Part shown: in pieces, positions 26,886-61,276 of the stretch
How positions within the stretch are numbered: the stretch's first letter is position 1
Layout: every line of letters begins with the position of its first letter
IMG/VR virus record: IMGVR_UViG_3300047094_000158
Direction: 5' to 3' (one strand)
Source: an uncultured virus (IMG/VR IMGVR_UViG_3300047094_000158)
Taxonomy: Duplodnaviria; Heunggongvirae; Uroviricota; Caudoviricetes
Length of the DNA stretch: 64,000 nucleotides
Notes under the pieces: generated by a model
The model's input: only the letters and a program-made list of their open reading frames with translations
What the model was told of the DNA's origin: nothing
Databases searched by the model: none
Program-made: the position numbers and the translations under genes

Positions 26886-29800
26886 TATATTCTTTGCCCC
26901 CGAATTCTTTGTGAATCAACATTTTTAATTTCTCTTATTACTGCCCTAGCAATATCATTTGGATTTGAGTTACTTCCGTTAATATTAAATCCCAGACTAT
27001 AATTATACACTGCTGTAGAATTATCATTCATTGATGTAGAAATACTATTAACTGGAACCTGGGCACTATTTCTATTGCCAATCATTGAAGGATATTTTGA
27101 CTCATTCAACATTGATAGCAATGGGCCAAACTGCTGGGTTGCTTTTTTGTTCATTACAAACTCGCCAGGGGTGAGCATTGCTGGCACGGTATCAGAGCCA
27201 ATTGATCCACCATTAGCCATATATTTAGGAACTAGTCCTCCCATAGCCATAGATAAAATTTTTCCACCATACATTTTCTTCTGTGCTCCAGTAAATGGAT
27301 CAATGTTTGGATTTGCTTTAAAATAAGCATCGGCTTGGGCCTGTAATCTAACAGATGATGCGGCCAAGCCTGATGCTGGACCTGATGCTATTCCCCTATC
27401 TGTAAATTCTTTTGTTAAATCTTTTTGCATTTTATCATAGTCTGCAGGACCTGCAGTTTTTGCTGTAGGGCTAGGCACTGCTCCTGAAAGCGATGATGCA
27501 GCCTTCATTGAAGCAAGAATACTTGTCCACGCACCTGCTGCTGTGGTGGAAGAAGTGGCAACCTTGTCTATATCAATTACTATTTGATTCAGATGTTTAT
27601 TTGTTGCATCTGTATATCTTTGTATAAAGTCCCACTCAGCCCTTGTCATTCCATTAATTGTTAATGATTGTTGTTCTTTTGAAATTTGAAAATCAAGATC
27701 AGAAAGCAATTTCTTTTTTGCATCTGCTTGTTTTTGTAAAGGTTCAAGTTGTTTTAATTCAATATTATAAATTTCATCGTTTAAAGTAATAATTTTCGCA
27801 TCAATTTGTTTTCTAGTTAACTTTTCACCATTAACAACAGCGGTGACTAAAGACAAATCTTTTTGTTTTTCTAGTTCTAAGTTGCTTGTTGCTTTTTCTA
27901 ATCCTCCACCCATTCTATTAAGGGCTTCCTCTGCTGAACTTGCTCGCATTTCTTGTGCAATTGAAGCGGCTGCTGAAATATCTCCTTGAGTTAATGCGTT
28001 AGCAAGGCCAAGTTGTTTTTGTTGTTGTGAAATCAAAAATGAATTTATTGATTTTATTGATTCAAGAGCGTCTTTTTGTTTATTTAAAGATTCAATTTTT
28101 TTATCATAAGTTTCTGTAATAATACTTTCTTGTTTACCGATTGAGTCAAGAGTGCGACTATAAGATTTAATTTTTAAGTTAATTCCATTAATCTCATCTT
28201 CAATTTTATTAATTGCTTGTTCGTCAATCATAATGCTTAATTCTATTGCTTCTGAAGACATACCATTTATCTTTTTAAATGAATCTTTTGCCTTTTTTTG
28301 AATTTCAATAAATTGATAATCAAAATTTTCACTTAATGCTTCTGCTCCACCTTCTGATAATTCATCTGCTTCAAATTGAGTAGCCTTTAATGCTTTTTCA
28401 AATTCTTTTGTTGCAGCAGTAGCCTTTTTAGTTCTATCAATCATTTTTTCTAGATCTTTGCCATCCAGGTCTTTACTTACGATCGCTGCTGCTTGTGCTG
28501 CATCAGCAGTTAATTCTAGTGCAGTAGCGGCATCAACGCCTCTTGCTCTCAGCATTGATAGTGCTTTATTTTGAGTTGTTTGTTCTCTTGTAATCTGGTC
28601 CTGTTGTCTTAAATATATACCCGCCTGAACTGTTGGGAATAGTCGGTTTAATGATTTACCATAATCGTTTAGCACTAACTTGCCATTCTTTGCCTTACTT
28701 GTAATCTTATCAAAGAATTTTCCTGCTTCTTCTGCACCAAGTCCTTCGGCAAACTGAACTAAACTTTCGTTAGCACCCATACCTTGTAATTGATTTGTAG
28801 TTCCCTTAAATGCATTTATAGATTTTCCGCTACCCAGTTGTTTGACAAGTTCTTTCCAACCACCCAAAGCATTTACAGACTCTTTTCTAAATAATTTTAA
28901 TTTTAATAATAAGTCGTCAAGCACTGTATCTCGTTTGCCAGGACCCTTATCTTCAACAACTCCTCCACCTGGTATTGCTCCTGGTAATATTCCACCCTTT
29001 GCTATAATTTCTGCTGCACTTTTGCCAGCAGCACCTTCAAAACCTTTAAAGTTTGGATCGTTAGATACAACATCAAAAGCAACCTTTAGGTTTTTATTTA
29101 CAAAATCTTTTCCTTCAGACAAAATTGTCCATTGATCATAAAAAGCCTTCCACTCTCCTGGTTTTTCTTCAGCAAGTTTTGCAACTACATCTTTAGTTAA
29201 TGTGGGATCTAGCCCTTCAATTTGTTTTAATGCATTTGTAGCCGTTGCCAATTGCTGTATTCCATTGGCTTTAAGATCAAGAGTAATTCCATATGTAGGA
29301 TTTATTTGATTTAAGAAACTTAATGCTTGCATATCTTTATCAAAATCTTCACTGTTGTTATTAATATATCCAAGCATAAGCGCTCTTGTTGTATCTGTTG
29401 CACCCTCAGATGGTAACAATTCTGCAATTAATGCAGCATCTGCAAGACCTTGCTTGTCAACTAAAAGACTAAATGCTGTTTCAAATCCTTTATTTCCTGC
29501 TGCAGTTGAAAGAATTTTTGTAATTACTGCTGGTCCTACCTGCCCAGATGCAAGACCTACCTGCAACTCTGTTTTAAATTCTGAATCTTTTAAATTATTT
29601 AATGCGTCTAATGCTTGATCTTTAAAGACTGCCATTGGACCTTCTTTATACATCGCATCTGCTGCTGCCTTAATTCCTTTAGTAAACGCTTCTCCTCCTA
29701 GTTGATCTCTTTGTTTTACTAATAAATTTAATGCATTTGCATTACTTGCATTTAATGTAGCAAGACCTGCTTTTCTTTGATCTTCAATTGTTTTTATTTC

Positions 29801-32800
29801 TTGTTCTGTTTTTGCAGACTTTAACTTTAAATCATATTGTTTATTTAATGAATCTACAAGTCCTTGATTTTGTGCTACCTCTTGTATTCCAAGTTCAACT
29901 GCTGCTGCAGCAAGTTTAACATTTACTGATTTTCTTTTATTAGCGTCTGCCTCTCCTCCAAGCATCAATCCCGCTCCAGTAGCGGCAAGGGCTGCACCTG
30001 GAACTGCAGCAGCGCCTGCGGTGAGAACGGCAGCGGCTGCTCCTGCTGCTATTAATCCAAAGCCAGCAACTCTTGCCAATACATTTGGACCAGTTGATTC
30101 ACTAATAGCCCCATCTACTGCTGTTCTAAAAGAGTCAGCCTGTCTTTGCATAGAATCTTTTTGTATTTGCAATGTTACCTGTAATGGATCTGTTGCAAGG
30201 TTTTCGCCATTTGGACCAAGCAGACTTACAAGTTTTCCACTTACTAGTGCTGGAATTTCATAACTTCCAAGTTTTTCTCCAAGTGCTGCAGAAATGCTTC
30301 TTGCTTGACTTGTTGTTACCGCTCCTTGTGCAACTGCAACTGCTAAATTATTAGCAAGGTTTTGAGATATTTCTTTAATTGATTTACCACTTTTAGATTG
30401 TTTTTCTATATCTGCAAGAATTCCTTTTCCAAACTCACTCTCTAATGTATTTTGTCCAAACTGTCTTTGTCCTTCAACTGTTCCAGAAACTATGTTTTTT
30501 CTTCTTCTTGCAGCCTCTTCACTTGCACTTACAGTTCCAGCAATAACAGATAAAGCAGTTAATTTTTCTGAAGTCATACTCATTGATTTAGCAAGATTAA
30601 TTCCTTCTAGCCTTGCTTTTTCTAAATCTTTACCCATTTTATATATTACTCCACCAACCAAAGCAAATCCAGCAACAACTGCTACCAAAGGATTAGCGAG
30701 TAGTGGAAGAATCATAGCAATACCCTGTAATCCAAAAACAAATGGCATTATAGTTTGAGCCATTTCTCCTAACTTGCCTCCAGCAAAAGATGCTGCAATT
30801 GTAAGTCCAGAGATAGCGCCAAGGCCCATAGTTGCTTTTGAACTAAAAGCAGTCAGACTTTGTTTTGCTGTTTTTGTTTGCTTTGTAAGATCATCTGTAG
30901 CCTGGGTTGATTGTTTTATTGATTCATTTTGTTTTTTTATTTCTTGTTGCTGTTTAGCAATTAAACCTCTAGGACCCATTGCCAATTTAGATGTAGCCTC
31001 AGATAAAGGAACTCCTTTGCTGTCAACCTTTTGAGCATCAGCAAAGCCACGTATTCTTCTAATTCTTTGAACTACAGTTTCTTTTGGACCAAGAGTTGTT
31101 GTTCTATTATCTGCAATATTTCTGCTTGTTGTTCCAACCGATGCTGGCTTTCTTTCAGTGTTTTGTCCAGTAAGTGCGGTTAATTTTCCACTGGAATCAC
31201 GCTTAAACTCTCCTCTTGCTCTAACGGCAACAGTTTCTTTTTGAGGTTGTTTACTAATTAATCTATCAAAGGTATCATTCATTGATTTAGTAATTTTAAG
31301 AACCTGTCGTCCACCACCTAGAAATTCTCTTTGTGATCTAAACTTTCCATCAACTAATCCATTCATTACATTATTCCCTGTAACTTTTCCACCTGTTATT
31401 TCAGGTCTTCTATAAGCAACAATTTCACCTGCACTATTTAGGCTAGTTGGAATTTGAAGATTTGGATTAAGTTTTTTTAACTCATTTAATTTTTTAACCA
31501 ATACTGGATTTGAACGAGTTTTTTGTACTGCCTTAATTACATCATCAATTGGCTTTAATTTATTTGTTGCAATTTTTGATCCGCCAACCGCACTTGTAGA
31601 TGCTGCTCCAAGCAATGATCTTGCTGCTTTAGATATAATTGGATCTCCTGATTTTGCAAGCGCACCCATAATTCCAGTTCTTTCATTACCCATTCTAGAG
31701 TAAATCATTTTGTCATTAATTAAAGTACCAGATGGCAAACCACTTAAAGATTTTAATAAATTTCCTCTAATTTGTTGTGCAACTTTATATGCTTCTCTAT
31801 CTGGAATTCCTCTTTTAGCCAGACTTAAAGTCATTGTTCTTAAAGAGTTGTTATTAAGAAGGGCTTTTCTATAATCATCAATGTTTACTCTTGAATTAGT
31901 TCTGTTTAATTGTGCATTCATTTCTTTAGGAATATCAAAGCCAACGGACGTATAAAGATTTTCTCTTCCAAAGCCAAGTTGTCTAAATTTATCTGATACG
32001 TTTGCTCCAGAAACTTGTCTATAATCTACAGCATGTCCAAATGCCAAGCCTGGCTTTACTCCAGTTGTTCCACCATTATATTGTGCAATTTTTCCACTTA
32101 CAAGTGCTGCAACTAATGGTTTAAATCTATCGTCTTGTGCTATTGGCTCTGGAACTACTGCTTCTCCAGGAGTTAATAATGCTGGTACAGAATCTTTTCC
32201 TGATTCCCCGCCAACTACACCTGTAGTTCCAGAAGAAAACTTTTGCGTTCCTCCGCCTTTTATTCCTCTAAATCCTGGTAACATCATTCCTGGATTTGTT
32301 GCTGCAAACCTTGCTGCTGCTGCAGTTGCATCAATATATGCCTGACGAAGTAATTTCAGTGAACCTGCTTCCATTACAAACTGTTGTGTAAGTTGTGTAT
32401 GTCTTTGATTTAGTGATGCTGCTATTGTTGCAGCCTCTAATTGTTCTACTGATAAATAATTTGTTTGTTCTGCAAGGATTTTTGAATTACCGCCAAGCCT
32501 TAAAAATCCACTACGCATTACTGCAAATAATTTAATACCATTTGCAACAGCGTTTAATAATAAACCAAAAGTCATTAATAATACTGGGCCAATAACTCCA
32601 ACCAGTGTAGTTGCTACTACTATAAACTTCTTTGTGCCATCTCCAAGATTATTAAATTTATCTAATAAGCCAGCAATTGATTGAGCAATTGGAGTTACTG
32701 CTTCTAAAAATGTTTTACCAATTGGCGCAAGAGTTAACTTAAGATCTTCAATTGCTTTTTTAAATTTAGTTCCAACAGCATTCTCTAAAACTCCAAGTTC

Positions 32801-34252
32801 TCTTTCAGACATAATCGCAAGTTGTTCAACTGAGTTTGTTGTTAAAGCAAGTACCTTTGATGCCTGTGTTCCATCTTTTGTTACGTTTTGAAATAATGTT
32901 GATAAACGTGAAAATTGGAACTTGCCGAATAACTGTTCAATTGCACGAGCACGATTAAGTGGATCTAATGTATCCAAGGCTCTTGAAAAGTCAATAACTG
33001 TTTGTCTAATGTTTCCTTGGTTGCCTTCTACAATTGCATTAATATTAATACCAAACCCTGCAAGCATGGCGCTTGCTTTTTTTGTTGGATTAATTAATGA
33101 TGCAAGACCAGATTTGAGTGCGTTGGCGCCTTCTGATGCATTGATACCGCCCTCTTTCATGGCAGTCAAGAAAAATGCTAAATCTTCAACATCTCCACCA
33201 AGTTGTTTAACAACTGGACCTGCTTTAGGAATTGCAATAGTTAAATCTTCAATAGATACAACTGTTTGGTTTTCAACTGCGTTAAGAAAGTCAATCTTTT
33301 TTGCTAAATCTTCTGCTGCTATTCCAAAAGCATTTGTTACTGATATTGTGGTTTCTAATGCTTGACTCTGTTCTACTCCACCAAGGACTGCAAGTCTTGT
33401 AGCCTGTGCAACTTGTGCAGTAAGTTCTGCTCCAGTTTTACCCATTGCCGCAGCATCTGCTGCCATCTTCATTGTATCTACAACTGCTACACCATACTTT
33501 GTAAATGACTCTGCAAGTTGTTTTATATTTTCAAGAGCCTCATTTGTTTGTTCCGTTGTTGTAAAGACGTCTCCATAAACACGTTTAAATCTAATAGCCT
33601 GTTTTTCAAGATCCATAAATGTTCTGCCAGCCACAGTTCCTAAATAAACAAGTGGAATTGTAAAACCAACCATAAGTTGGCGACCTGCCCATTGTGTGTT
33701 TTTACCAAAGTTTAAAAGATTGGTAGATCCTTGTTTTAATAATTGATTAAATAGTGCTTGTTTTTGTGCTGCCATAGCAATTTGCGTGCCATAGTCTTTC
33801 ATGTTTAGGCTAGTTGGAGTAACAGAGATAGCCTTCATTGCTCCGCTTGCATCACGGCCTAGTTTAATATATTGTGTTTGTAATTTTTTTACACGCTCTT
33901 GCGCTACCTTGCCAATTGTGTCAAACTCTGTTTTAAATAATCTTCCAAATGTTTTTGTTGAACCGCCCGCAAAACGGAAGTATTCACGCATTGACAGTTT
34001 ATTTTTTTCAAGAGAATGTGTAAAAGATTCTGTAGATGTTCTAACAACACCCATTTGTGCTGAAAATTTACCAGTAGCATTTATTGAATTCAGCAGATTC
34101 TGCTGCATATTTCTTTGTTGAGCAGCAGCAGAAGCACTACCCTTTGATACCGAAGTATGGAATAGTGCTAACTGTCGCTGTAAACCTTTAAGTTCCGCTA
34201 ACGCCTGCGACGTATCAATTTGTACGCCAATTTTGGCATTAACATCACTCAT
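26885..34252 (-). CDS. Tail tape measure protein
   Basis: 2455 aa, Ala/Gly-rich helical TMP core (EGANALKSGLASLINP), hydrophobic segments, follows tail chaperones. Confidence 0.93.
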   Translation of the reverse strand: MSDVNAKIGVQIDTSQALAELKGLQRQLALFHTSVSKGSASAAAQQRNMQQNLLNSINATGKFSAQMGVVRTSTESFTHSLEKNKLSMREYFRFAGGSTKTFGRLFKTEFDTIGKVAQERVKKLQTQYIKLGRDASGAMKAISVTPTSLNMKDYGTQIAMAAQKQALFNQLLKQGSTNLLNFGKNTQWAGRQLMVGFTIPLVYLGTVAGRTFMDLEKQAIRFKRVYGDVFTTTEQTNEALENIKQLAESFTKYGVAVVDTMKMAADAAAMGKTGAELTAQVAQATRLAVLGGVEQSQALETTISVTNAFGIAAEDLAKKIDFLNAVENQTVVSIEDLTIAIPKAGPVVKQLGGDVEDLAFFLTAMKEGGINASEGANALKSGLASLINPTKKASAMLAGFGININAIVEGNQGNIRQTVIDFSRALDTLDPLNRARAIEQLFGKFQFSRLSTLFQNVTKDGTQASKVLALTTNSVEQLAIMSERELGVLENAVGTKFKKAIEDLKLTLAPIGKTFLEAVTPIAQSIAGLLDKFNNLGDGTKKFIVVATTLVGVIGPVLLMTFGLLLNAVANGIKLFAVMRSGFLRLGGNSKILAEQTNYLSVEQLEAATIAASLNQRHTQLTQQFVMEAGSLKLLRQAYIDATAAAARFAATNPGMMLPGFRGIKGGGTQKFSSGTTGVVGGESGKDSVPALLTPGEAVVPEPIAQDDRFKPLVAALVSGKIAQYNGGTTGVKPGLAFGHAVDYRQVSGANVSDKFRQLGFGRENLYTSVGFDIPKEMNAQLNRTNSRVNIDDYRKALLNNNSLRTMTLSLAKRGIPDREAYKVAQQIRGNLLKSLSGLPSGTLINDKMIYSRMGNERTGIMGALAKSGDPIISKAARSLLGAASTSAVGGSKIATNKLKPIDDVIKAVQKTRSNPVLVKKLNELKKLNPNLQIPTSLNSAGEIVAYRRPEITGGKVTGNNVMNGLVDGKFRSQREFLGGGRQVLKITKSMNDTFDRLISKQPQKETVAVRARGEFKRDSSGKLTALTGQNTERKPASVGTTSRNIADNRTTTLGPKETVVQRIRRIRGFADAQKVDSKGVPLSEATSKLAMGPRGLIAKQQQEIKKQNESIKQSTQATDDLTKQTKTAKQSLTAFSSKATMGLGAISGLTIAASFAGGKLGEMAQTIMPFVFGLQGIAMILPLLANPLVAVVAGFALVGGVIYKMGKDLEKARLEGINLAKSMSMTSEKLTALSVIAGTVSASEEAARRRKNIVSGTVEGQRQFGQNTLESEFGKGILADIEKQSKSGKSIKEISQNLANNLAVAVAQGAVTTSQARSISAALGEKLGSYEIPALVSGKLVSLLGPNGENLATDPLQVTLQIQKDSMQRQADSFRTAVDGAISESTGPNVLARVAGFGLIAAGAAAAVLTAGAAAVPGAALAATGAGLMLGGEADANKRKSVNVKLAAAAVELGIQEVAQNQGLVDSLNKQYDLKLKSAKTEQEIKTIEDQRKAGLATLNASNANALNLLVKQRDQLGGEAFTKGIKAAADAMYKEGPMAVFKDQALDALNNLKDSEFKTELQVGLASGQVGPAVITKILSTAAGNKGFETAFSLLVDKQGLADAALIAELLPSEGATDTTRALMLGYINNNSEDFDKDMQALSFLNQINPTYGITLDLKANGIQQLATATNALKQIEGLDPTLTKDVVAKLAEEKPGEWKAFYDQWTILSEGKDFVNKNLKVAFDVVSNDPNFKGFEGAAGKSAAEIIAKGGILPGAIPGGGVVEDKGPGKRDTVLDDLLLKLKLFRKESVNALGGWKELVKQLGSGKSINAFKGTTNQLQGMGANESLVQFAEGLGAEEAGKFFDKITSKAKNGKLVLNDYGKSLNRLFPTVQAGIYLRQQDQITREQTTQNKALSMLRARGVDAATALELTADAAQAAAIVSKDLDGKDLEKMIDRTKKATAATKEFEKALKATQFEADELSEGGAEALSENFDYQFIEIQKKAKDSFKKINGMSSEAIELSIMIDEQAINKIEDEINGINLKIKSYSRTLDSIGKQESIITETYDKKIESLNKQKDALESIKSINSFLISQQQKQLGLANALTQGDISAAASIAQEMRASSAEEALNRMGGGLEKATSNLELEKQKDLSLVTAVVNGEKLTRKQIDAKIITLNDEIYNIELKQLEPLQKQADAKKKLLSDLDFQISKEQQSLTINGMTRAEWDFIQRYTDATNKHLNQIVIDIDKVATSSTTAAGAWTSILASMKAASSLSGAVPSPTAKTAGPADYDKMQKDLTKEFTDRGIASGPASGLAASSVRLQAQADAYFKANPNIDPFTGAQKKMYGGKILSMAMGGLVPKYMANGGSIGSDTVPAMLTPGEFVMNKKATQQFGPLLSMLNESKYPSMIGNRNSAQVPVNSISTSMNDNSTAVYNYSLGFNINGSNSNPNDIARAVIREIKNVDSQRIRGQRI

Positions 34253-34268
34253 TCTTTCACCTCATTAT

Positions 34269-34601
34269 TTAATTGTTTGCAAGAACTGTGTTCAAGAGTG
34301 CATTTGCATCTTGAAGTTTTACCCCTGAAGCAGATTCAATAATTCTGTAAACAGTTGGAAGATCAATATTTTCTTCTAACTTTTTAGCATCTTCTGCAAT
34401 TTCTGGCTTATATTGCTTCATAGCAATTTGAACACACTCAATAAGGACAGTTGTTGACTTGTCATTATCCTCTGCCACCTCTGCTAGTTCTGAAAACTTT
34501 TTCATAAATGGACGAAGTAATGAGATTTTAAGCGGTCTTGCTTTAATCTTGCTTCCGTCCAAAAGAACTAGTTCTACCTCTTCATACGTGTTTGTTGCCA
34601 T
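34269..34601 (-). CDS. Tail assembly chaperone, short (gpG-like) form
   Basis: Between MTP and TMP; clear paralog of the N-terminal ~100 aa of 34663..35358; SD AGGAGG. Confidence 0.75.
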   Translation of the reverse strand: MATNTYEEVELVLLDGSKIKARPLKISLLRPFMKKFSELAEVAEDNDKSTTVLIECVQIAMKQYKPEIAEDAKKLEENIDLPTVYRIIESASGVKLQDANALLNTVLANN

Positions 34602-34628
34602 TGATTTTTCCTCCTATAGGCTATGTCA

Positions 34629-34637
34629 ATTATAGCA
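34629..34637 (-). promoter_or_regulatory. Extended -10 promoter TGCTATAAT
   Basis: Recurrent motif upstream of the short chaperone and TMP. Confidence 0.7.
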
Positions 34638-34662
34638 TGATGATGATTATTTTTTTATTATT

Positions 34663-35358
34663 TTATTTTGTTAAATCTTCGTAATCTAAACCATGACCAA
34701 TGCCAAACCCTGCTTTTTGGGCACTATGTCCTTGAAGAGCCAAAATGTCTTTGCCATCGCCTGTCTTGCCTTTGCTAAATACTCTGGCCTTCATATCTTC
34801 CCACTCTTTTTGTCCCCTATCATTACCTGATTGCTTATCTAAATCTACCCCCTGAATTGCAGCAAGAAATTTTTTTTCTTCATAGTCAAGTTCTCTACGA
34901 CTAGAAAGGGTGGCCATTAATTCTGGCATAGATAGCGATTCTTCTAATTCTTTGTAATCTTTCCAAATGCCCAATAAAAATACTTCTGCTTCTATTTTTG
35001 CTAAATCTAACTCAGACCAAGTAGCATTACTGTCTTTTGCTTGATCTTTTACTGTTTCTTGAGATTCTTTGTTTATTTTAATTCCCGCTGCAACATCTAA
35101 TATTGAATATATAGTTGGCATGTCTAGGCTATCTTCTATGTCCTCTTTGTTTAGTGCTACATCTGGATAATATTGTTTCATACAAATTCTAATGCACTCT
35201 GTTATACATTCTATGGCTTCGTCATCATTTTTGGCTTTTTTGACATACTCAAATGCTTCCATAAACTCACGTAAATGTTTTATTTTTAATGGATTTATTT
35301 CTAACTCTGTGCCATCAATAAGTTTTATTACTTTATTTTGATAAACGGTTGTTGCCAT
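34663..35358 (-). CDS. Tail assembly chaperone, long (gpG-T-like) form
   Basis: G-like N-domain fused in frame to a C-domain (WSELDLAKIEAEVFLLGIWKDYKELEESLSMPEL); start lies 7 nt after TGATAGAAT (35366-35374), no SD. Confidence 0.75.
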   Translation of the reverse strand: MATTVYQNKVIKLIDGTELEINPLKIKHLREFMEAFEYVKKAKNDDEAIECITECIRICMKQYYPDVALNKEDIEDSLDMPTIYSILDVAAGIKINKESQETVKDQAKDSNATWSELDLAKIEAEVFLLGIWKDYKELEESLSMPELMATLSSRRELDYEEKKFLAAIQGVDLDKQSGNDRGQKEWEDMKARVFSKGKTGDGKDILALQGHSAQKAGFGIGHGLDYEDLTK

Positions 35359-49535: not shown

Positions 49536-50825
49536 TTAGTAAGCACCCATAATTATGATTGCTTCGTCTACTCCTGCTGCAGGTGTTGACCAAGATAAAA
49601 TTGCAGAGCCATCTGTTGTTAAAACCTGATTAGCAGTTCCATCTGTTGAAGGAAGTGTCCATACCTTATTTGCTGCAACAGTTTCTGGAGATTTAAAACC
49701 AACATAGTGACTTGAGTCTGTATCTGCAAGTCTAAGTTCTGCTGTAGCATTAAGAGTAAATGATGTTGTTGCTACCGCACTTCCTAATGTTTTATTAGTA
49801 AGGGTTTCTGAAACATCTTTAAGCAAAGTGCCATTCATATGATATGACTTGCCTGAAGCAAGATTAATATGTTCTGATGAAGTCCAAGCGTCTGTAGCGT
49901 CTACCCAGTTAAAGGTTTTATCAGTTGTTCCTTTTAATGTTATACCGCCACCATCTGCAGTTGCGTCTGCTGGTTCTGTAGTGTCTCCAAGAACAATGTT
50001 TTTATCTTCAACAACAAGGTTCGTTGAATTAATATTTGTTGTTGTTCCATTAACTGTTAAGTTACCAGAAAGAGTTAAATCTGTTCCAGATACCGCCCCA
50101 GTAAATGTTGCTCCTGAAAGATTTGCTTTTAGATTAAGTTCTGTTTGAGTTGCAGTTGAGACTGGTTTATTTGCATCTGTTGTATTATCAACATTTGCAA
50201 GACCAACGTCTGTTTTTGTAATTCCAGTAGGTGTATTGATTACTGGAGAAGTTAAAGTTTTGTTTGTAAGTGTTTCTGTTTTTGAAGCAGTTGACTTATC
50301 GTCTAGTTGGGTTTGAATTGCTGAAGTAACACCATTAAGGTATCCAATTTCGGTATCAGACACATCTGTAACACGAGCCTGAATTGTTGTGGTGTCTACT
50401 GCCAAAGTTAGTGTGTTTGCGCCATCGTTATAAGTCTTTGTTATACCTGTACCCGCAGTTAGTGCAGAATCAATAGCATCTTGTGAAAGTTCTGAAATAT
50501 CAGATGTTAGGGCTACTGTGCCTGTTGCATCTGGAAAAGTAATTGTACGGTCAGCAGTTGGGTCTGTTATTGCAAGAGTTGTCTCAAAATCATTTGCGGT
50601 AGCGCCTTCAAAAGTAATGCTTGAACCAAAAGCAGGGTTAACGGTAGAGTTAACATCAGAGAAGTAGTCTAGGCTTGTCCAGTTATTTACACCATCACCA
50701 ATTTTAAATTTATTTGTGTCTGATTCCCAACCCATTTCGCCAGCATTTAATACTGGTCCTGCTCCTCCGTTTGTAGAGATCCACTGCGCTGCAGTTCCTC
50801 TACGCTGTTGCATTCTGGTTGCCAT
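49536..50825 (-). CDS. Fibre protein with Mtd_N-like N-terminal domain and C-terminal IIMGAY tag
   Basis: MQQRRGTAAQW...GEMGWESDTNKFKIGDG..W..LDY; shared fibre repeat modules; LTNKTL repeats. Confidence 0.8.
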   Translation of the reverse strand: MATRMQQRRGTAAQWISTNGGAGPVLNAGEMGWESDTNKFKIGDGVNNWTSLDYFSDVNSTVNPAFGSSITFEGATANDFETTLAITDPTADRTITFPDATGTVALTSDISELSQDAIDSALTAGTGITKTYNDGANTLTLAVDTTTIQARVTDVSDTEIGYLNGVTSAIQTQLDDKSTASKTETLTNKTLTSPVINTPTGITKTDVGLANVDNTTDANKPVSTATQTELNLKANLSGATFTGAVSGTDLTLSGNLTVNGTTTNINSTNLVVEDKNIVLGDTTEPADATADGGGITLKGTTDKTFNWVDATDAWTSSEHINLASGKSYHMNGTLLKDVSETLTNKTLGSAVATTSFTLNATAELRLADTDSSHYVGFKSPETVAANKVWTLPSTDGTANQVLTTDGSAILSWSTPAAGVDEAIIIMGAY

Positions 50826-50861
50826 GTTACTCCCTATACTTAGTTATATTATAACAGATAA

Positions 50862-51320
50862 TTAATTAAAATTATCTGTTGCTATCCCGCCGTCATACGT
50901 TGCTTCAAATTCTGTAGTGTTATAAAGTCCAGCACTTACAAGAACTCCAGGTTCATAATAAAACCCAGCATCAATAAATCTACTTACAACCAATCCAGTT
51001 CCATCAATTGATGTGTCATGAATATGGTCTTGTAGCGTTTCTGCATCTTCAAGTGTTGCAATAGCAATCCATTGACTACTATAATAAACGTGAACACGCT
51101 GTGTTACTGTGTCAAACCATAAATCTCCATTATCTGGAGAAACTGGCTGTGTTTCACTAACTGGAATTGTTGGTGAACTTACTGCATTGTCTACATAAAG
51201 TTTTGTTGCTGCATGTGCGTTTTCAGTAGGAGTGGCAACTGTAACAGTTCCTCCAAAAGTACCGCCATCGGCTACTGCAATGCCGTGCTTTACTCTAAAG
51301 TCTCTATTAGTAGTTGCCAC
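50862..51320 (-). CDS. Short fibre linker protein
   Basis: N-terminal DFRVKHG, HAATKLYVD trimer motif, NGDLWFD...W knob, C-terminal YDGG. Confidence 0.7.
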   Translation of the reverse strand: MATTNRDFRVKHGIAVADGGTFGGTVTVATPTENAHAATKLYVDNAVSSPTIPVSETQPVSPDNGDLWFDTVTQRVHVYYSSQWIAIATLEDAETLQDHIHDTSIDGTGLVVSRFIDAGFYYEPGVLVSAGLYNTTEFEATYDGGIATDNFN

Positions 51321-51338
51321 TTCCGACCTCTATTCTAG

Positions 51339-53099
51339 TTATGCTTCAATATAAATTTTGTGTACTTTAACAGCGGTATCTGCTGATGCACCAGTTACCT
51401 GAAGAAGAACGTTTCCACCACTGTAAACAGCGTTAGTTGTTCCTAGTTCAGTGTTACTGATTACATCTGCATACTCTGTTAAGTAAACGTTGTTTGATCC
51501 ATCAACTGTTACAAGAACTTCAATTACTTCAATATCTGTACCCTTTTTCATCTGCACGATATATTTAGCACTTGAGTATGTTGTTGCTGACCAAGAGTCA
51601 ATTGTTGTTGCTGAGGCTGAAGCGGTAGCAAGAGCAGAACCCATAAGAGCATCTGGAAGAGCAATGCTTGTAGCAGTTGCTGCACCAAGTACTGGAGTAA
51701 CAAGAGTTGGTGTATTAGCAAATACTAGAGCACCAGTTCCTGTTTCATCAGAGATAACTCCTGCAAGTTGTTCTGAAGTTGTTGCTGCGAATACACCTAA
51801 GTTGTTTGTTGTATATGCACCATTTGTTACTGTTGCAGCATTTCCTGTGTATTCTGTTGCTGATAGAACTTGAGTTCCAGCAACTTTTAATACCTTGCCA
51901 GAAGCAAGATCTAAGTGCTCAGAAGATGTCCATGAATCAGTTGCATCTACCCAGTTAAAAGTCTTGTCTGTAGCACCCTTAAGAGTAAGACCACCACCGT
52001 CTGCTCCTGCGTCTGTTGGAGATGTTACTGCACCAAGAATAAGGTTCTTATCATCAATTGTGATTTCTGTTGAGTTAATTGTAGTTGTTGTACCGTTAAC
52101 TGTTAGGTCCCCTGAAAGAACCAAAGATGTACCAGTTGCAGCACCAATGTTTGGTGTTACAAGTGTTGGGGTATCAGCAAAAACAAGTGCTCCAGTACCA
52201 GTCTCATCAGAGATTACTGTACGAAGTTCTGATGAAGTTGTTGCAGCAAAAACATCTAACTTGTTATTTGTAAGAGCAACAGTACCTGTTGCATCTGGCA
52301 AAGTGATAGTCTTGTCTGAGGTTGGATCTGTAACTGTAAGCGTTGTTTCAAAATCATTTGCTGTAGCACCTTCAAACACAATTCCATTGCCGTCTACTGC
52401 TGGTGATGTAAGTGTTTTATTTGTAAGAGTCTGTGCATCGCTTGTTCCAACGATATTACCAGTTACACCGTGAGTTGATGTAAGTCCTGCGTGAGTTGAA
52501 ACATATCCTGAAGCAGTTGATTCTGCTGCAGTTTGTGCTGATGCTGCTGCACCAAATGCATCAAAAGTATTTGCTGTTACAGAAATTGCTCCAGTACTGT
52601 CTGTGTATGTAAGACCAGTTCCGACCGCATTACCTACTGCGTCTTGTGCTCTTTCATCAGTGAAGTAAAGGTTTGTACCTTCCTCAATAACTGTTGTTGA
52701 AATTGCATCTATTGCAGATGTAATATCAGCAGTAAGTGCTACAGTTCCTGTTGCATCTGGAAGTGTGATTGTGCGATCTCCAGTTGGGTCTGTTACTGAA
52801 AGAGTTGTTTCAAAATCGTTTGCTGTTGCACCTTCAAATGTAATTGAAGATTCAAAAACACCAACTGCTTGTGGTGCCTTCCAAGCAATACCATCTGTTG
52901 CATTTGAGTCTGCTGTAAGAATATAATTATCTGTTCCAACGGCAAGACGAGTTACTGCGTCTGCACCAGATGCTACTAGTAAATCACCTTTGGCGTCTAC
53001 TAATGCTTCTGTTAATATATCGTGAGAGTTAACGGTAGCAGTTGATCCCTCAACTACAAGTCCCGCTTTTACTCTAAAGTCTTTTGTTACTGTTGCCAT
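51339..53099 (-). CDS. Long fibre protein with internal repeats
   Basis: N-terminal DFRVKAG; AKGDLLV; two FEGATANDFETTL modules; NLYFTDERA; two ISDETGTGALVFA modules; C-terminal SSAKY beta domain. Confidence 0.8.
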   Translation of the reverse strand: MATVTKDFRVKAGLVVEGSTATVNSHDILTEALVDAKGDLLVASGADAVTRLAVGTDNYILTADSNATDGIAWKAPQAVGVFESSITFEGATANDFETTLSVTDPTGDRTITLPDATGTVALTADITSAIDAISTTVIEEGTNLYFTDERAQDAVGNAVGTGLTYTDSTGAISVTANTFDAFGAAASAQTAAESTASGYVSTHAGLTSTHGVTGNIVGTSDAQTLTNKTLTSPAVDGNGIVFEGATANDFETTLTVTDPTSDKTITLPDATGTVALTNNKLDVFAATTSSELRTVISDETGTGALVFADTPTLVTPNIGAATGTSLVLSGDLTVNGTTTTINSTEITIDDKNLILGAVTSPTDAGADGGGLTLKGATDKTFNWVDATDSWTSSEHLDLASGKVLKVAGTQVLSATEYTGNAATVTNGAYTTNNLGVFAATTSEQLAGVISDETGTGALVFANTPTLVTPVLGAATATSIALPDALMGSALATASASATTIDSWSATTYSSAKYIVQMKKGTDIEVIEVLVTVDGSNNVYLTEYADVISNTELGTTNAVYSGGNVLLQVTGASADTAVKVHKIYIEA

Positions 53100-53114
53100 C
53101 TTTTATCTCCTTGG

Positions 53115-53561
53115 TTAGGCCTTTAATCCCATACGCATATAGCGTAGAGTTATAGGTGTAATTCCCCCAACTGGAACAACAGTTAATGAAACTGTATCTC
53201 CAGCCCGTGAAACAGAGATGGTGCCAATATTCCCATCATTTTCAACTATTCCATATTGACTAACGGATACATCTGTTCCGTCAACTAATATAGATAATTC
53301 AGTAGCAGAGTATTTGTTTCCTCCACCTGCTACATATTTAAGTGAGATCATATACTTCATTGATCTAAACTCGCTTGCTAAAAAGTTATCAAACACTGTT
53401 GAGTTTTCAATTCCATTAATTGTTGACTCGTTATTGCCATCTGAACCAAGATCTGTAGACCTAGCAGAAGTGCTGTCAATTAAATCTTCGTAGTTTGCCT
53501 GTGTTGGTCTATCTCCTGTTTCAAACAGGGCCTTAACGTTTGCTGTTGATATCTTTGCCAT
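53115..53561 (-). CDS. Fibre base/adaptor protein
   Basis: N-terminal FETGDRPTQANYEDLIDS; C-terminal RSMKY domain similar to the C-domain of 51339..53099. Confidence 0.7.
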   Translation of the reverse strand: MAKISTANVKALFETGDRPTQANYEDLIDSTSARSTDLGSDGNNESTINGIENSTVFDNFLASEFRSMKYMISLKYVAGGGNKYSATELSILVDGTDVSVSQYGIVENDGNIGTISVSRAGDTVSLTVVPVGGITPITLRYMRMGLKA

Positions 53562-53583
53562 AGTGTAATTATATCATTATATG

Positions 53584-53805
53584 TTAAAGTATATAGTTAT
53601 TTACACCAATAACTTGAAGACCAATTCCAGGGATATTTGCATTTGCTGGAGCAATTCCTATTGTGGTAAATTTAATTCTAAAGGGTAAAATTTCATTAAT
53701 TTTTACTGAATTTGCTTTGTAAATTATTTCAGATAGTGGGTAGCCAACAGAATTTATTCTTTTTAATTTTTGACTATCTGTATCAACAATTACAGCATAG
53801 GCCAT
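53584..53805 (-). CDS. Small virion linker protein
   Basis: Coupled (TAATG) to the upstream BppU-like gene; PGIGLQVIG. Confidence 0.65.
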   Translation of the reverse strand: MAYAVIVDTDSQKLKRINSVGYPLSEIIYKANSVKINEILPFRIKFTTIGIAPANANIPGIGLQVIGVNNYIL

Positions 53806-54218
53806 TATGACTCTTGACCGTTTGTAATATCCTCAATGATTGTTAGGGTGCCACGAGCAACTGTCCAAACCCTAGTTGCATCACTTAGTTCAATATCAAA
53901 AATATCACCTGTATTAAGACTTCTTGATTCTGCCGAAGTTAAAGATACTGTAAACTCTCCATCTCCATCTTCTACTGTGGCTACTGGATATAACGTTAAT
54001 ACACTTGTTGGATTTGCATCATTAAGATTACCCGCTACTGTTGGTCTTTTAATTTCCATTTCAACTGTCCACTCAGAAATAACTAGTGGATCTTTGTCGT
54101 CATCTGTTACGTATACCCTAAATGCAGCGGTATCACCTTTTACAACTGTCCATTGTACGGTTGGCGGGGTAGATCCAACGGAATATGAACTTTGTGATTG
54201 ATTTCTAAATGTAGCCAT
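53805..54218 (-). CDS. BppU-N-like anchor protein, paralog 3
   Basis: VVKGDT...FDIEL...ARGTLTIIEDIT; promoter TGGTATAAT at 54228-54236. Confidence 0.65.
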   Translation of the reverse strand: MATFRNQSQSSYSVGSTPPTVQWTVVKGDTAAFRVYVTDDDKDPLVISEWTVEMEIKRPTVAGNLNDANPTSVLTLYPVATVEDGDGEFTVSLTSAESRSLNTGDIFDIELSDATRVWTVARGTLTIIEDITNGQES

Positions 54219-54283
54219 AATCTTATCATTATACCATTAACTAATAACAATATTATAAATATTTTTTTATTTTATGCGGGTAT

Positions 54284-54364: not shown

Positions 54365-54919
54365 ATGAGAGAATCTAATGCTTGGCTAGGGGTATTATCG
54401 TTAGTTATTTGTAGTACCGTTTTTGTGGGTACAGCAAAAGCATCAAACGAAAATAACTTATTAATTAAAGAGTCCATTAAGTCTGCCACCCAAGAGGTGG
54501 CTTTTTTGGTTTCTAAAGATAAAAAGTTAGAAAAATATGAAAATGCTGATAAATTAACCAATGAAGAATTAGTTGATTTGTTAAAGCATGTGGGGTTTGA
54601 AGGAAATGCTTTAAGAACTGCTTGTGCAATTGCTATGGCCGAAACCAACGCTAGACCACATGCTTTTAATGGTAATCCTAAAACTGGAGATAGTTCTTAT
54701 GGAATGTTTCAAATAAACATGATAGGGGACTTGGGGCCAGATCGCAGGGAGAAGTTTGAATTAGGTTCAAACTCTGAACTGTTTAACCCAGTTAAAAACG
54801 CACAGATAGCACATCATATGACTAAAGGTGGTAAAGACTGGTCTTCCTGGACTACCCTGAATGGATCACGGTATCAGGAATGGTACAACAAATATCCATG
54901 CAAAAAAGACAAAAAATAA
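54365..54919 (+). CDS. Secreted lysozyme-like / lytic transglycosylase protein
   Basis: N-terminal signal peptide; AIAMAET (catalytic Glu position), SYGMFQIN, LFNPVKNAQIA, WSSW; SD GGAGGT. Confidence 0.85.
   Translation: MRESNAWLGVLSLVICSTVFVGTAKASNENNLLIKESIKSATQEVAFLVSKDKKLEKYENADKLTNEELVDLLKHVGFEGNALRTACAIAMAETNARPHAFNGNPKTGDSSYGMFQINMIGDLGPDRREKFELGSNSELFNPVKNAQIAHHMTKGGKDWSSWTTLNGSRYQEWYNKYPCKKDKK
54485..54507 (+). terminator. Intragenic intrinsic terminator inside the lysozyme-like gene
   Basis: GCCACC-caaga-GGTGGC-TTTTTT on the coding strand. Confidence 0.65.
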
Positions 54920-56951: not shown

Positions 56952-57863
56952 CTAAACCTCAAGGACGTAAGCAACGCCTGCTCCACCATCGCCACCATTG
57001 CCAGTAGGGCCATTACCACCTGCTGCGCCACCACCACCTTTAAGACCTGCACCAGCATTAGTACCCCAAGCACCGCCAGTTGATATAGTTCCACTTTTTA
57101 CGAAAATAAATTCACCCGAGTTGTAAGAGGTGCCACCACCAGTACCATATCCATGGGGTCCTCCAGAACCACCATTTACGGCATTTCCAGTTCCGCCTCC
57201 GCCACCTTGTGCGCCATTGTGTAGTGAGTAATGTCCGCCACCACCGCCGTTTGCAGTTAATGTTGTAATTCCAGTACCAGAAATTGTTGATGTGCCACCA
57301 CCTGAAGCATTTCCTCCGCCAAATCCTGCGCTGGGTCCTGCGCCACCTGCGCCACCGCCAATTACTATAGAAGCGTTTGATGATATTGGAGTATAGCCAG
57401 CAGAAATACCGCCAGCGCCACCAGCACCGCCTGGGTATGATCCAGCACCTGATCCGCCACCTCCGCCACCAACAATTATGCTATATGCAGCACCAGTTGT
57501 ACTAAGAGTTGTAGTTGTATTATATTCAGTAGCCGCACCAGTTGCTACTGGGCTAAGGGATCTACCGCTAGGGGTAATCGTAACAATTACGCTAGTTCCA
57601 GCATTAGTATAGATAAGTGCTTTATCTGCATCTCTAGACAAACTGAGTTGAACTGAACCACTTGATGTAGAAGTTCTTCCAATTGCGCCAGCAGAGTCTT
57701 CAAAAGTTACTGTAGCAACAACAGTTGCTGGGCAGGTGATTGTGTAGGTAGATGCGGGAAAACTTGTAGATAGTCTGTAGCCAACAGATGCTGCTGGTAC
57801 CGATACCGCTTTAGTTTCTAATACAGACGCTGCTGATGCTGGGGGAAATACACTAATTCCCAT
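56952..57863 (-). CDS. Glycine-rich fibre tip / adhesin-like protein
   Basis: N-terminal MGISVFP; VGGGGGG...GGAGG...ANGGGGG polyglycine motifs ending GGAGVAYV. Confidence 0.75.
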   Translation of the reverse strand: MGISVFPPASAASVLETKAVSVPAASVGYRLSTSFPASTYTITCPATVVATVTFEDSAGAIGRTSTSSGSVQLSLSRDADKALIYTNAGTSVIVTITPSGRSLSPVATGAATEYNTTTTLSTTGAAYSIIVGGGGGGSGAGSYPGGAGGAGGISAGYTPISSNASIVIGGGAGGAGPSAGFGGGNASGGGTSTISGTGITTLTANGGGGGHYSLHNGAQGGGGGTGNAVNGGSGGPHGYGTGGGTSYNSGEFIFVKSGTISTGGAWGTNAGAGLKGGGGAAGGNGPTGNGGDGGAGVAYVLEV

Positions 57864-58208: not shown

Positions 58209-58589
58209 TTATAAGGTATAAACTCCCATAATTGTTTTAATTTCTAACTCTTCAACGATAGATTGTTTTGCAATTGGTAACCAGTTAGATCCATCATAAA
58301 TTTGAAGGGTATTAATTATATTTCCAGATGAATCTTGTCTTATTACACATATTGATCCAGCGACTGGAGATGTAATTGATGCATCTCTTGCTGCTGGATT
58401 AAGATAATTATTTATACCCCTTTTTGCAACTAACGCCTCAACCATTGTTACATTAGATAAATAGGTTTGCAACCCCGCCCACTCATAAGTTCCAGATGTA
58501 TCTGTTTTACCAGATAACTCATACCAGGTATCGTCTGCTACATTATAAATATATCCTGGTTTTCCGTCGTAATTAAATAATGTTGGCAT
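58209..58589 (-). CDS. Short fibre protein with C-terminal TIMGVY tag
   Basis: AARDASITSPVAG...IYDGSNW knob; ends EELEIKTIMGVYTL. Confidence 0.7.
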   Translation of the reverse strand: MPTLFNYDGKPGYIYNVADDTWYELSGKTDTSGTYEWAGLQTYLSNVTMVEALVAKRGINNYLNPAARDASITSPVAGSICVIRQDSSGNIINTLQIYDGSNWLPIAKQSIVEELEIKTIMGVYTL

Positions 58590-59103: not shown

Positions 59104-59679
59104 TTAAACTATAGATATAAAAAGGTGTACAGTTTTATTTCCAGTAAGCGCTGACCAACTACCACCGCTATATTGAACTGCGTCAAAGTTTATTACTAAG
59201 TTTGTTCCAGCCCCTGCTAAAGCAGGTATCTCCATTGATGAAGCAATTGGATTTGCTCCTTCAATTTGAAACTGAACATTGAAGTTTGAAGCGGTAAGTG
59301 GTGAACCACTAACTGTTACTATGTTTGATATTGGAATAGTTATTGATCCTGCGCCAGACGTAAAGGCAATTGTTTCTACAGAGGAGTAAATTGCTGGACT
59401 TACTTTTAAAACTTGAACCCAAGTATTTGCACCAGCCTGAGAAATATATTGATACATATATCCATAGTTTTCTCCTGGGGCGGTATTAATATACATATCA
59501 TTTAAAATTAAGGTGTTTCCAAATAAAACACCACTTGCTGTTAATGCATTAGGTTCTCCAGAACCAACAATAAACTTACTACCACGAGTTCCCTGTGGTC
59601 CAATGTCAACTAATAGATCAATTGACTCTGGCGGTCCTATAACAACAACATCATCGGTATTAAGTAGTACGTCAACCAT
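59104..59679 (-). CDS. Fibre base protein
   Basis: GPQGTRGS...GSGEP...NDMYIN motif; coupled to the BppU-like gene. Confidence 0.65.
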   Translation of the reverse strand: MVDVLLNTDDVVVIGPPESIDLLVDIGPQGTRGSKFIVGSGEPNALTASGVLFGNTLILNDMYINTAPGENYGYMYQYISQAGANTWVQVLKVSPAIYSSVETIAFTSGAGSITIPISNIVTVSGSPLTASNFNVQFQIEGANPIASSMEIPALAGAGTNLVINFDAVQYSGGSWSALTGNKTVHLFISIV

Positions 59680-60029
59680 TATGAATCATCTGCTCCAGTA
59701 ATATCATCTGTTACTGTTATTGATCCAGTCAAAAGTGTGTAAATTAGTGTTGCTCCAGAATCTATTTGAACATCGTAAACATATGTTCCAGCAGCAAGTT
59801 CTTCTCCAGCACCTGGTAAAATTGTGCAAGTTACTACATCTGTAGAGCCATCAACAACTGCTTGCATTTCATATTGAGTTTTATTTTCACCTCTTTGATT
59901 TGCAATGAAAAAGCCTGCACTATATCCTGTTAAGTCAAATGCGTCGCCGTTTGCGTTTTTAGGACGGATTACAAATTCGTACCTATCACCACGGTAGTAA
60001 TTAAAATTATATGTGCCTGGAAATGCCAT
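59679..60029 (-). CDS. BppU-N-like anchor protein, paralog 2
   Basis: YYRGD...FDLTGY...YVYDVQI...LLTGSITVTDDIT; promoter at 60045-60053; SD AGGAGG. Confidence 0.7.
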   Translation of the reverse strand: MAFPGTYNFNYYRGDRYEFVIRPKNANGDAFDLTGYSAGFFIANQRGENKTQYEMQAVVDGSTDVVTCTILPGAGEELAAGTYVYDVQIDSGATLIYTLLTGSITVTDDITGADDS

Positions 60030-60053: not shown

Positions 60054-60773
60054 TTATGATACTGCTATATATATGCCTTTTAATATAAAAGATCCTTCAT
60101 TGTCTGTTCTGATTTGAGGGATGCCTCCATAATTTTTTATCTTGTCGCTATTTATAAAAATGGTTTGAGAGTAAGACAGGTCATATTGATATTGATATTT
60201 TAATAACCCAACATATCCTATAGGTGATAATTCTTCGTTTCGTAAAAAGGTTCTAATCCAAACTTCTGTATTGTTTGAATATGTTTCTAAAGAAAAATCA
60301 TACCTAACCTCTACCTTTGCCCCTACTTTAAGTGTTTTTAGGTTGATAGTCTTTGCTATTTGATTTAATAAAGAAACTGATTTGTTTGGAAGATATGCTT
60401 CATTGGTTTGGGATTCATCTATATCTAAGAAAAAAGAAACCCATCCATCTTCTCCTCTTTCTGGACCGACTTTATAAGTCTTTGTATTTTTTCCAACATA
60501 GTGTGCCCACCCAGGGTACTGACCAGAGGGGCTATCGTATCCTTCTGCACCTTTACCCGTATCACCTTTTTCTCCTTTTGGTCCTTGTAGTCCTTGTGCA
60601 CCCTTTTCGCCTCTATCACCTTTTATACCTTGAGGGCCTTGAGGACCAATTGGCCCCACTTCACCTTTTTCCCCTTGGATTCCAGGAACGGCAATATACT
60701 CAATAGATTTTGTTTGTTCTACAGTCTCAGTGTATTTTTTCTTTTTGATTGGAAAATCCATGCTCTTTGTCAT
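60054..60773 (-). CDS. Collagen-like fibre protein
   Basis: 14 consecutive Gly-X-Y triplets followed by a globular beta domain. Confidence 0.8.
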   Translation of the reverse strand: MTKSMDFPIKKKKYTETVEQTKSIEYIAVPGIQGEKGEVGPIGPQGPQGIKGDRGEKGAQGLQGPKGEKGDTGKGAEGYDSPSGQYPGWAHYVGKNTKTYKVGPERGEDGWVSFFLDIDESQTNEAYLPNKSVSLLNQIAKTINLKTLKVGAKVEVRYDFSLETYSNNTEVWIRTFLRNEELSPIGYVGLLKYQYQYDLSYSQTIFINSDKIKNYGGIPQIRTDNEGSFILKGIYIAVS

Positions 60774-60785
60774 GTTTTCCAAACC

Positions 60786-60875
60786 TTACTTTATTTTTGT
60801 CTTAAAGACCTTTTTGCCAATTTTAACAATTGGTGGAATATTTGTATTTGGAGTAGAAACCTTTACAACTGGCAT
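60786..60875 (-). CDS. 29-aa basic peptide MPVVKVSTPNTNIPPIVKIGKKVFKTKIK
   Basis: Below ORF-track cutoff; TAATG coupling to upstream gene, GGAGG upstream, fills the gap exactly. Confidence 0.65.
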   Translation of the reverse strand: MPVVKVSTPNTNIPPIVKIGKKVFKTKIK

Positions 60876-61276
60876 TATAAACTTCCTCCAGGGGTGACAT
60901 TTCCAAGCACACAAATTGTTCCAATTACTGGAGTCCAAATTGTGTCTGCTTCTCCACTACCACCAGGAATTGTAACCTGAAGGTCAAATTGTAATTCTGA
61001 AACCACGGACCTATACTGAGTCCCCCAGTTAGTAGCAATATCTGCAGGTATAGAAATAATTGCATACCCATCATCTTCTGTTACTGTAAGTTCATCAAGA
61101 ACTTCTCCTGTAGGATCATAGGCTGTAGATAGGTATGTCCAGCCATCTGTGTCGTAAACAGTTGTTTCGTCATCTTCAAAAAATTCTACTTTTAGGGTCG
61201 CATTGTTTCCACGGACTACGGTCCATTGAATGTTTGCTGGCGAAGCGCCATATTTTTCTATTGTAGGAGCACACAT
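60875..61276 (-). CDS. BppU-N-like anchor protein, paralog 1
   Basis: IQWTVVRGN...QFDLQV...WTPVIGTICVLGNVT; promoter at 61285-61293. Confidence 0.65.
   Translation of the reverse strand: MCAPTIEKYGASPANIQWTVVRGNNATLKVEFFEDDETTVYDTDGWTYLSTAYDPTGEVLDELTVTEDDGYAIISIPADIATNWGTQYRSVVSELQFDLQVTIPGGSGEADTIWTPVIGTICVLGNVTPGGSL

Follow-up and report, generated by a model that had tools for sequence, protein, structure and literature searches.

The 64,000-nt stretch of DNA analyzed here (the window), derived from an uncultured freshwater phage (IMG/VR record IMGVR_UViG_3300047094_000158), carries on its minus strand, at positions 49536-54218, six tightly packed genes in the order p137-p73-p148-p586-p152-p429, with intergenic gaps of 15–36 nt. 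This operon probably encodes one segmented fibre, assembled head to tail through a reiterated joint in which a C-terminal domain of the T4 gp9 type (the socket) would receive a short N-terminal segment, possibly like that of T4 gp34 (the plug). An initial annotation of the sequence had proposed a plug-and-socket chain for the region 49536..54236. The motifs and the four open reading frames (ORFs) that it named were all found on the minus strand; p137 and p73, which it did not discuss, also lie inside that range. The chain itself stands in part: socket-plug docking at the two joints between an SSAKY-type domain and a DFRVKxG N-terminus has strong indirect support from the gp9 fold, the terminal positions and the recurring adjacency of the two elements, whereas for the last joint, between the YDGG tail of p152 and the Mtd_N domain of p429, it is the gene order that suggests a contact.

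The Putative p148 Connector and Its gp9-Type Socket

The gene p148 (53115..53561, minus strand) encodes a putative fibre connector formed by a helical N-terminal part (residues 1–36) and a gp9-like C-terminal beta domain. This domain, socket S1 (residues 43–148; 53118..53435, minus strand), bears the motif RSMKY at residue 66. The AlphaFold2 (AF2) monomer model of p148, with a pLDDT of 82.7, contained three short N-terminal helices and the beta domain at residues 43–148. When this model was searched with Foldseek, the best match was the T4 gp9 structure 1qex (E 7.5e-6), and residues 43–148 were superposed on gp9 residues 173–284 of 1qex_A with a Z of 12.9 and an rmsd of 2.3 Å over 102 aligned residues (24% identity). 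The p148 socket was found to have the fold of gp9 residues 167–288, an eight-stranded beta domain. Next came a baseplate protein of Klebsiella phage KP1 that resembles gp9 (Z 11.1), and the model was also matched by tailspikes of Acinetobacter phages, in their C-terminal domains (Z 9.5–9.9), and by the fibre gp42 of Klebsiella phage Kp9 (Z 8.5).

Sequence profiles pointed, more weakly, to the same relationship. The p148 protein matched PHROG 967, the gp9 family annotated as “baseplate wedge tail fiber connector”, at E 1e-4, and the p148 family was aligned with gp9 by hhalign at E 4.1e-4. A profile search of the Protein Data Bank (PDB) listed gp9 at E 0.26, and nothing meaningful was returned when the PDB was searched with p148 or p586 as a single sequence. 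The p148 protein therefore reads as a “mini-gp9”, a connector carrying a socket. A total of 2632 clusters close to p148 were present in the protein collection, and the identity among 27 non-redundant relatives was 64–93%. Additionally, one relative has an extra fibre of 580 aa (L117:1101-2843) with an N-terminus like that of p148 (MAIVPIEILKTKFESGDFP...), so the N-terminus of p148 may itself be a reusable attachment module.

A Second Socket in p586 and the Extent of the Socket Family

Fibre segment A is encoded by p586 (51339..53099, minus strand). It begins with a plug (MATVTKDFRVKAG), continues as a variable shaft with FEGATANDFETTL repeats and ends in socket S2, the “SSAKY” domain (residues about 495–586; 51342..51617, minus strand), whose motif is located at residue 509. 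The homology of this domain to S1, claimed in the initial annotation, was weak in the pairwise comparison (E 0.052) and clear when family profiles were compared: the profiles, built from 28 p148 relatives and 34 fibre C-termini of IMG/VR loci, were aligned by hhalign over 83 columns with a probability of 96.9%, an E of 1.4e-10 and 25% identity, and a common pattern was displayed by the joint alignment of S1 and S2. Among the 182 ORFs scanned in the window, the pattern (R/S)S(M/A)KY occurred in these two domains only. The joint socket profile also aligned with gp9 from the T4 record (hhalign E 3.1e-5, probability 73%), and a PDB search with the S2-type socket profile gave only rows at chance level.

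The socket family is large, with 6409 representatives (clustered at 50% identity) detected by the socket profile at E≤0.001 among 1.84 billion proteins. In 141 of the best 150 library representatives the socket lay no more than 12 residues from the C-terminus, and at least 70 of them begin with a plug.

The Plug at the N-Termini of p586 and p152

Plug D1 (p586 residues 1–30, MATVTKDFRVKAGLVVEGSTATVN...; 53010..53099, minus strand) is a conserved N-terminus found on otherwise divergent fibres and starts 15 nt past the stop codon of p148. Plug D2 (p152 residues 1–45, MATTNRDFRVKHGIAVADGGTFGG...HAATKLYVD; 51186..51320, minus strand) starts 18 nt past the stop codon of p586. Both follow the consensus MATxx(K/R)DF(R/K)VKxG, and the likeness of the two starts noted in the initial annotation was confirmed by BLASTP (E 3e-4 over 16 residues); beyond residue 16, D1 and D2 consistently diverge. 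The motif DF(R/K)VKxG was restricted to these two N-termini among the ORFs scanned. The N-terminal ~16–30 residues are kept, as a conserved docking segment would be, on fibres with no other relationship (p586-like, p152-like and 750-aa). None of 275 proteins and none of the ORFs of the loci had the plug pattern at an internal position, and no natural fusion with a socket followed by an internal plug within one polypeptide was found. This strictly terminal position of plug and socket fits end-to-end docking. An argument of this kind, that only a domain ending the chain keeps the distal face of the trimer free, was made for the docking domains of CBA120 TSP4 (PMC8825819).

The plug could be aligned in register with the N-terminus of T4 gp34 (MAEIKREFRAEDGL) over residues 1–16 and 1–18, with E 0.031 and 0.0053 and probabilities of 1.6% and 6.8%, a likeness that is no more than suggestive. 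Residues 8–50 of p152 matched the C-terminal fibre segment (...PTxxxHAATKxYVD) of the phage hyaluronidase HylP1 at E 8e-5, which suggests that the plug is built of ordinary trimeric fibre elements. The plug profile had no matches in the PDB.

Sockets Precede Plugs in Relatives and in Other Lineages

The loci related to p148 and p152 have the order p137-p73-p148-[plug...socket fibre]-p152-[Mtd_N fibre] in common. The adjacency of the two motifs across phage contigs, which the initial annotation had named as a check of the chain, was counted in 246 unique pairs of a socket gene and the gene that follows it: the second gene began with a plug in 200 pairs and with a gp9-N-like start in 28, all from one marine lineage, the other 18 being contig-end artefacts, and in the reverse direction 200 of the 202 plug genes followed a socket gene, the exceptions being due to a contig edge and to a fibre gene broken into two parts; these loci were retrieved by means of the window's own proteins, and the counts represent inherited gene order and not independent origins. 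In four relatives that are 96–100% complete, with genomes of 104–118 kb, sockets and plugs number exactly two each per genome and are adjacent in every case, and the plug begins 19–36 nt beyond the end of each socket match. Third matches at both ends of one of these records (G004) were read as terminal redundancy of the same genes.

The arrangement was also observed with other proteins. In the cultured cyanomyovirus S-TIM5, a 674-aa virion protein with a socket end and a different N-terminus is followed, 61 nt on, by an 81-aa virion protein that starts with MATNKHFHIKHGLTV and is little more than a plug (L258:5453-7784; JQ245707 63452-65783). In a distant lineage that includes contigs of 220–364 kb (loci L381-L455, e.g., L391, L393, and L384), all 56 socket links, counted for socket genes with a neighbour at ≤100 nt, led to a plug-type N-terminus. 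Chains of up to five consecutive fibre genes were present in this lineage, with plugs of the FNSVGGFSVG or the KNFVVKNG/KYFNVKNG type; some of them begin with a plug-less protein, and in L383 the first protein has a gp9-N-like start. The loci related to the library proteins P0133 and P0145 added no new socket context beyond the window's own group.

The marine lineage (L231-L254) contains runs of fibre genes in which N-termini like that of T4 gp9 (..GTGDxL..KIN.NF) are combined with 4–12 tandem socket-like copies and followed by similar genes. Tables of socket and plug subtypes were also drawn up and gave clean pairings, but such pairings would follow from conserved gene order in any case, and the tables were therefore not accepted as independent evidence.

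Conserved Joints, Variable Shafts and Exchange of Segments

The identity of each module was expressed as the median to the window over 74 non-redundant loci having all four genes (p148, p586, p152, and p429). The joints were conserved, with 82% for S1, 83% for the fibre A plug D1, 86% for S2, which is the most conserved part of fibre A, 80% for D2 and 80% for Mtd_N (fibre B residues 1–60). The corresponding values were 38% for the middle of fibre A, 53% for the middle of fibre B and 22% for the last 80 residues of fibre B. The lengths in the relatives ranged from 508 to 873 aa for fibre A and from 146 to 1356 aa for fibre B. A chain with one distal receptor-binding end would be predicted to combine conserved joints with free shafts and a hypervariable last tip, as seen here. 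A receptor-binding role of S2 is unlikely.

The segments had also been expected to be exchangeable and open to addition. Exchange was indeed observed, as a single plug-starting fibre (750 or 902 aa) stands in place of p152 and the Mtd_N fibre in 8 loci. Addition was seen in other lineages, but no extra or lost plug-socket segment was found in the loci of the window's group.

The Putative p152 Adaptor and the Proposed Distal Segment p429

The product of p152 (50862..51320, minus strand; N-terminus MATTNRDFRVKHG) is a putative adaptor formed by plug D2, a small beta domain (residues 50–95), the invariant HIHD and a C-terminal tail of the form YDGGxAxDNFN. It had been described as ending in YDGG; the motif is present, although seven residues before the end, which reads ...YDGGIATDNFN. 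The tail (residues 140–152, ...ATYDGGIATDNFN; 50865..50903, minus strand) is where Mtd_N of p429 is proposed to make contact. The residues G144, G145, D149, N150, F151, and N152 were invariant or nearly so in an alignment of 53 sequences, and a variant adaptor of 138 aa, ending ...TIDGGTAA, also precedes an Mtd_N fibre. Conserved gene order and terminal conservation are the evidence from which a p152-to-p429 contact may be proposed. The Foldseek search with the p152 model gave no match at E≤0.001, TSP4-N rows being weak (E 0.4), and the protein atlas search with p152 returned nothing but viral clusters without a name and a single lead, under 0.9.

The HIHD motif (p152 residues 99–102) was invariant across 53 relatives. 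In some trimeric fibres, metal ions on the axis are coordinated by His-x-His motifs. “Di-histidine repeats” are mentioned for phage Bas63 (PMC12609058).

Segment B, the putative distal part of the fibre, is encoded by p429 (49536..50825, minus strand) and is composed of an Mtd_N N-terminus, a shaft related to that of p586 and a hypervariable C-terminus. Both ends had been correctly identified at the outset: the Mtd_N domain (residues 6–46; 50688..50810, minus strand) matched Pfam PF18454 at E 5.7e-10, with 39.4 bits against a cut-off of 26.3, and the protein ends in IIMGAY. The central shaft region is common to p586 and p429, with 42% identity over 359 residues. The last 80 residues of p429 (49539..49778, minus strand) form the least conserved module, with many alternative endings, and are likely to be the receptor-binding tip.

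The C-terminus IIMGAY (49536-49560) and the endings of many fibre B variants (FMLIGA and LMLIGA) resemble the tail of the p126 family (58209-58589; TIMGVYTL and FMLMGG), and this type of ending may be a hydrophobic C-terminal strand common to distal fibre proteins. Moreover, the library protein P0136 (622 aa), absent from the loci examined, starts with Mtd_N as p429-like fibres do and ends in a socket as p586-like fibres do; it may be a real recombinant that arose via the common shaft region, or an assembly chimera.

Proposed Assembly and Alternative Explanations

In the proposed head-to-tail assembly, the helical N-terminus of p148 would hold the connector on the virion, and S1, presumably trimeric, would leave its distal face open on the threefold axis. 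Plug D1, the ~30 N-terminal residues of p586, would dock coaxially on this face, as the gp34 N-terminus does on gp9. Then S2, at the C-terminus of p586, would take plug D2 of p152, and p429 would be held through its Mtd_N domain by the tail at the C-terminus of p152; the variable C-terminus of p429 would be the part that meets the host.

Several observations weigh against this assembly. With respect to the individual proteins, the AF2 model of p152 was poor (pLDDT 64.7) except at residues 50–95, the similarity of the plug to gp34 is of low probability (1.6–6.8%), and the p152 family had in common with T4 gp36 only 14 columns of the common fibre motif ...KxYVD, with a probability of 1.1%. A search of the T4 genome with the socket profile failed to pick up gp9 at E≤1, and Pfam PF23618 (T4_gp9_10_C) gave no match to p148 or p586 at E≤0.1, nor any in two complete relatives; the S-TIM5 socket matched this family at E 0.0027 with 15.4 bits, below the curated cut-off. 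In S-TIM5 itself, a 564-aa tail fibre with a plug-like start and a socket end (L255:5651-7345) has no adjacent partner gene. The socket domain is not exclusively terminal, since the domain scan also showed it repeated in tandem, with as many as 8 copies in one protein (up to 9 matched stretches with HMMER). The gp9-like fold also caps the tailspikes of Acinetobacter phages (Z 9.5–9.9) with no known partner, and the domain in RaK2 gp529 has been interpreted as a trimerization domain (PMC10253068).

The occurrence of the fold at tailspike ends, its interpretation as a trimerization aid in RaK2 gp529 and the tandem arrays, in which the domain can be a plain shaft unit, would be in agreement with a different and rather improbable arrangement, the parallel docking of two fibres. 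In that case p148 would be the sole true socket, p586 and p152 (carrying p429) would both attach to copies of p148, as alternative fibres or as fibres present together, and S2 would do no more than fold, trimerize or cap fibre A. The first 16 residues are alike in both plugs, as such an arrangement would allow, and at locus L337 a 218-aa socket protein precedes two plug-bearing fibres with no detected socket, which fits it as well. However, a folding cap need not be as conserved as S2 is in comparison with the middle of fibre A (86% vs. 38%), and the divergence of D1 and D2 after residue 16, together with the identity of just 25% between S1 and S2, suggests two distinct cognate pairs. Parallel docking is also opposed by the equal numbers of sockets and plugs in every complete relative and by S-TIM5, in which the plug protein that follows the 674-aa socket protein, at 81 aa, is too short to form a fibre by itself.

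A still more doubtful explanation, to which we give little weight, is that the matching ends are leftovers of tandem duplication or module shuffling among paralogous fibre genes whose products attach independently and whose order is merely conserved. The tandem duplication of a gene with a plug and a socket would equally put a socket beside a plug; the shaft in common to p586 and p429 indicates that these genes exchange parts, and the marine-lineage runs, in which every gene has a gp9-N-like start and a socket-like end, are as duplication would give. The phylogenetic dependence of the adjacency counts also leaves room for this origin. By contrast, p148 has a socket and no plug and p152 a plug and no socket, so they are not whole-gene copies, and p148 is little more than an attachment domain of the gp9 type. 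Furthermore, the adjacency recurs with unrelated upstream architectures (S-TIM5, the 218-aa protein of L337, and L383), and the plug is never internal. The head-to-tail chain remains the favoured explanation for the operon.

Relation to Known Fibre Systems

The long tail fibre (LTF) of T4 attaches coaxially to gp9's C-terminal domain through the N-terminus of gp34 (PMC3004832, PMC10253068), and for phage Bas63 smaller gp9-like trimers, termed “LTF platform”, have been described (PMC12609058). The C-terminal beta domain of gp9 has the fold of the window's sockets, but gp9 has in addition a middle domain and another N-terminus and belongs to the baseplate of a contractile tail, whereas the window phage looks like a siphovirus. 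In T4 the socket is used once, while in the window a fibre segment carries it again at its C-terminus. The T4 proteins gp34-gp35-gp36-gp37 resemble the window's operon in that, according to the record annotation, consecutive genes encode end-to-end segments with small connectors between long rods. They differ from it in that the joints are made via gp35 and gp36, with no reuse of a gp9-type domain between segments as far as examined.

In the anchor-branch systems of receptor-binding proteins (Klebsiella phages KP32/K11/KP34, CBA120 TSP1-4, and G7C gp66/gp63.1), a conserved short N-terminal peptide or domain docks on the beta-jellyroll of another fibre, and the modules are exchangeable (PMC6872550, PMC13352976, PMC8825819). 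There, T4 gp10-like XD2/XD3 docking domains near the N-terminus of the anchor give rise to branches, whereas in the window the docking domain is the last one, which would give a linear series. The XD domains of gp10 and TSP4 were not among the matches listed for the p148 model. Mtd_N attaches Mtd of the Bordetella phage BPP-1 to a tail fibre. The N-terminus of p429 matches this domain, but the rest of p429 is the p586-related shaft and not the C-type lectin body of Mtd.

Fibres made of several proteins, the joint between gp9 and gp34 and docking peptides of the plug kind are already known. No description was found, in open-access papers and preprints, of the serial reuse of the gp9 C-domain as a joint between segments or of its wide spread. 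We tentatively propose, as a possibility that still falls short of being probable, that the gp9-type C-domain and the plug form a widespread, position-specific joining code, in which subtype pairing would order linear fibres of two to five proteins from consecutive genes. If so, fibre architecture could be read from gene order, segments would be exchangeable as cassettes, and this code would be at work in the window's operon, in the S-TIM5 pair and in the five-gene chains of large uncultured phages alike. If fibres are joined in this serial way, the T4 gp9-gp34 joint would be one case of a reusable joint, not a speciality of the baseplate.

Fibres determine the host range of phages, and most fibre genes in uncultured phages lack annotation. 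Such serial joining, if real, would provide an annotation rule, by which a C-terminal gp9-like domain followed by a gene with an N-terminal plug would give the membership of the appendage, the order of its parts and its host-facing end. The size of the socket family sets the scale of this rule. Natural junctions for swapping fibre segments among laboratory phages would also become available.

Genomic Setting of the Operon

The first gene of the conserved fibre operon, p137 (53805..54218, minus strand), encodes a small Ig-like protein of phrog_1084 (PHROG E 2.1e-13) with a weak match to Invasin_D3, and it lies upstream of p73 and p148 in related loci too. The second, p73 (53584..53805, minus strand), encodes a small conserved protein ending ...IG(V/F)(N/S)NYIL and was found directly upstream of p148 in every case. 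After p429 there is a gap of 139 nt and then a class II ribonucleotide reductase gene. Antisense ORFs within p586 and p429, which mirror the Thr/Ala/Gly-rich fibre frames, were taken to be spurious. A promoter scan gave no signal above background. Terminator-like sites were commoner than in shuffles, none of them decisive for the end of the operon, and one hairpin was located in the gap after p429.

The window also encodes a portal, a protease, a major capsid protein, a tape measure protein of 2455 aa and tail genes. No sheath gene was found in it, and together with the length of the tape measure this makes the virus look like a large siphovirus. No close relative of the window's proteins was found among cultured phages; tblastn gave weak partial matches, and DNA searches covered no more than 9% of the query.

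Other features of the window were also recorded. Three small Ig-like paralogues are encoded at 59679-60029, 53805-54218, and 60875-61276 (p116 and p137 belong to phrog_1084, and p133 is related to p137). Each of them heads a fibre-like gene set, one with a collagen-repeat protein (60054-60782) and another with a Gly-rich protein of 303 aa (56952-57863). At 54365-54919, between two fibre sets, lies a gene for a lysozyme-like protein (Pfam SLT_3, E 9.4e-18), the sole plus-strand gene of this region. The tape measure gene (26885-34252), with its 2455 residues, implies an unusually long tail, and the tail chaperone pair at 34269-35358 has a common N-terminal part (38.5% identity over 96 residues). 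Finally, at 6196-7656 and 8511-9374, respectively, the replication module has genes for a protein like tryptophan halogenase (phrog_2928, E 5e-98) and for a Cas4-like exonuclease.

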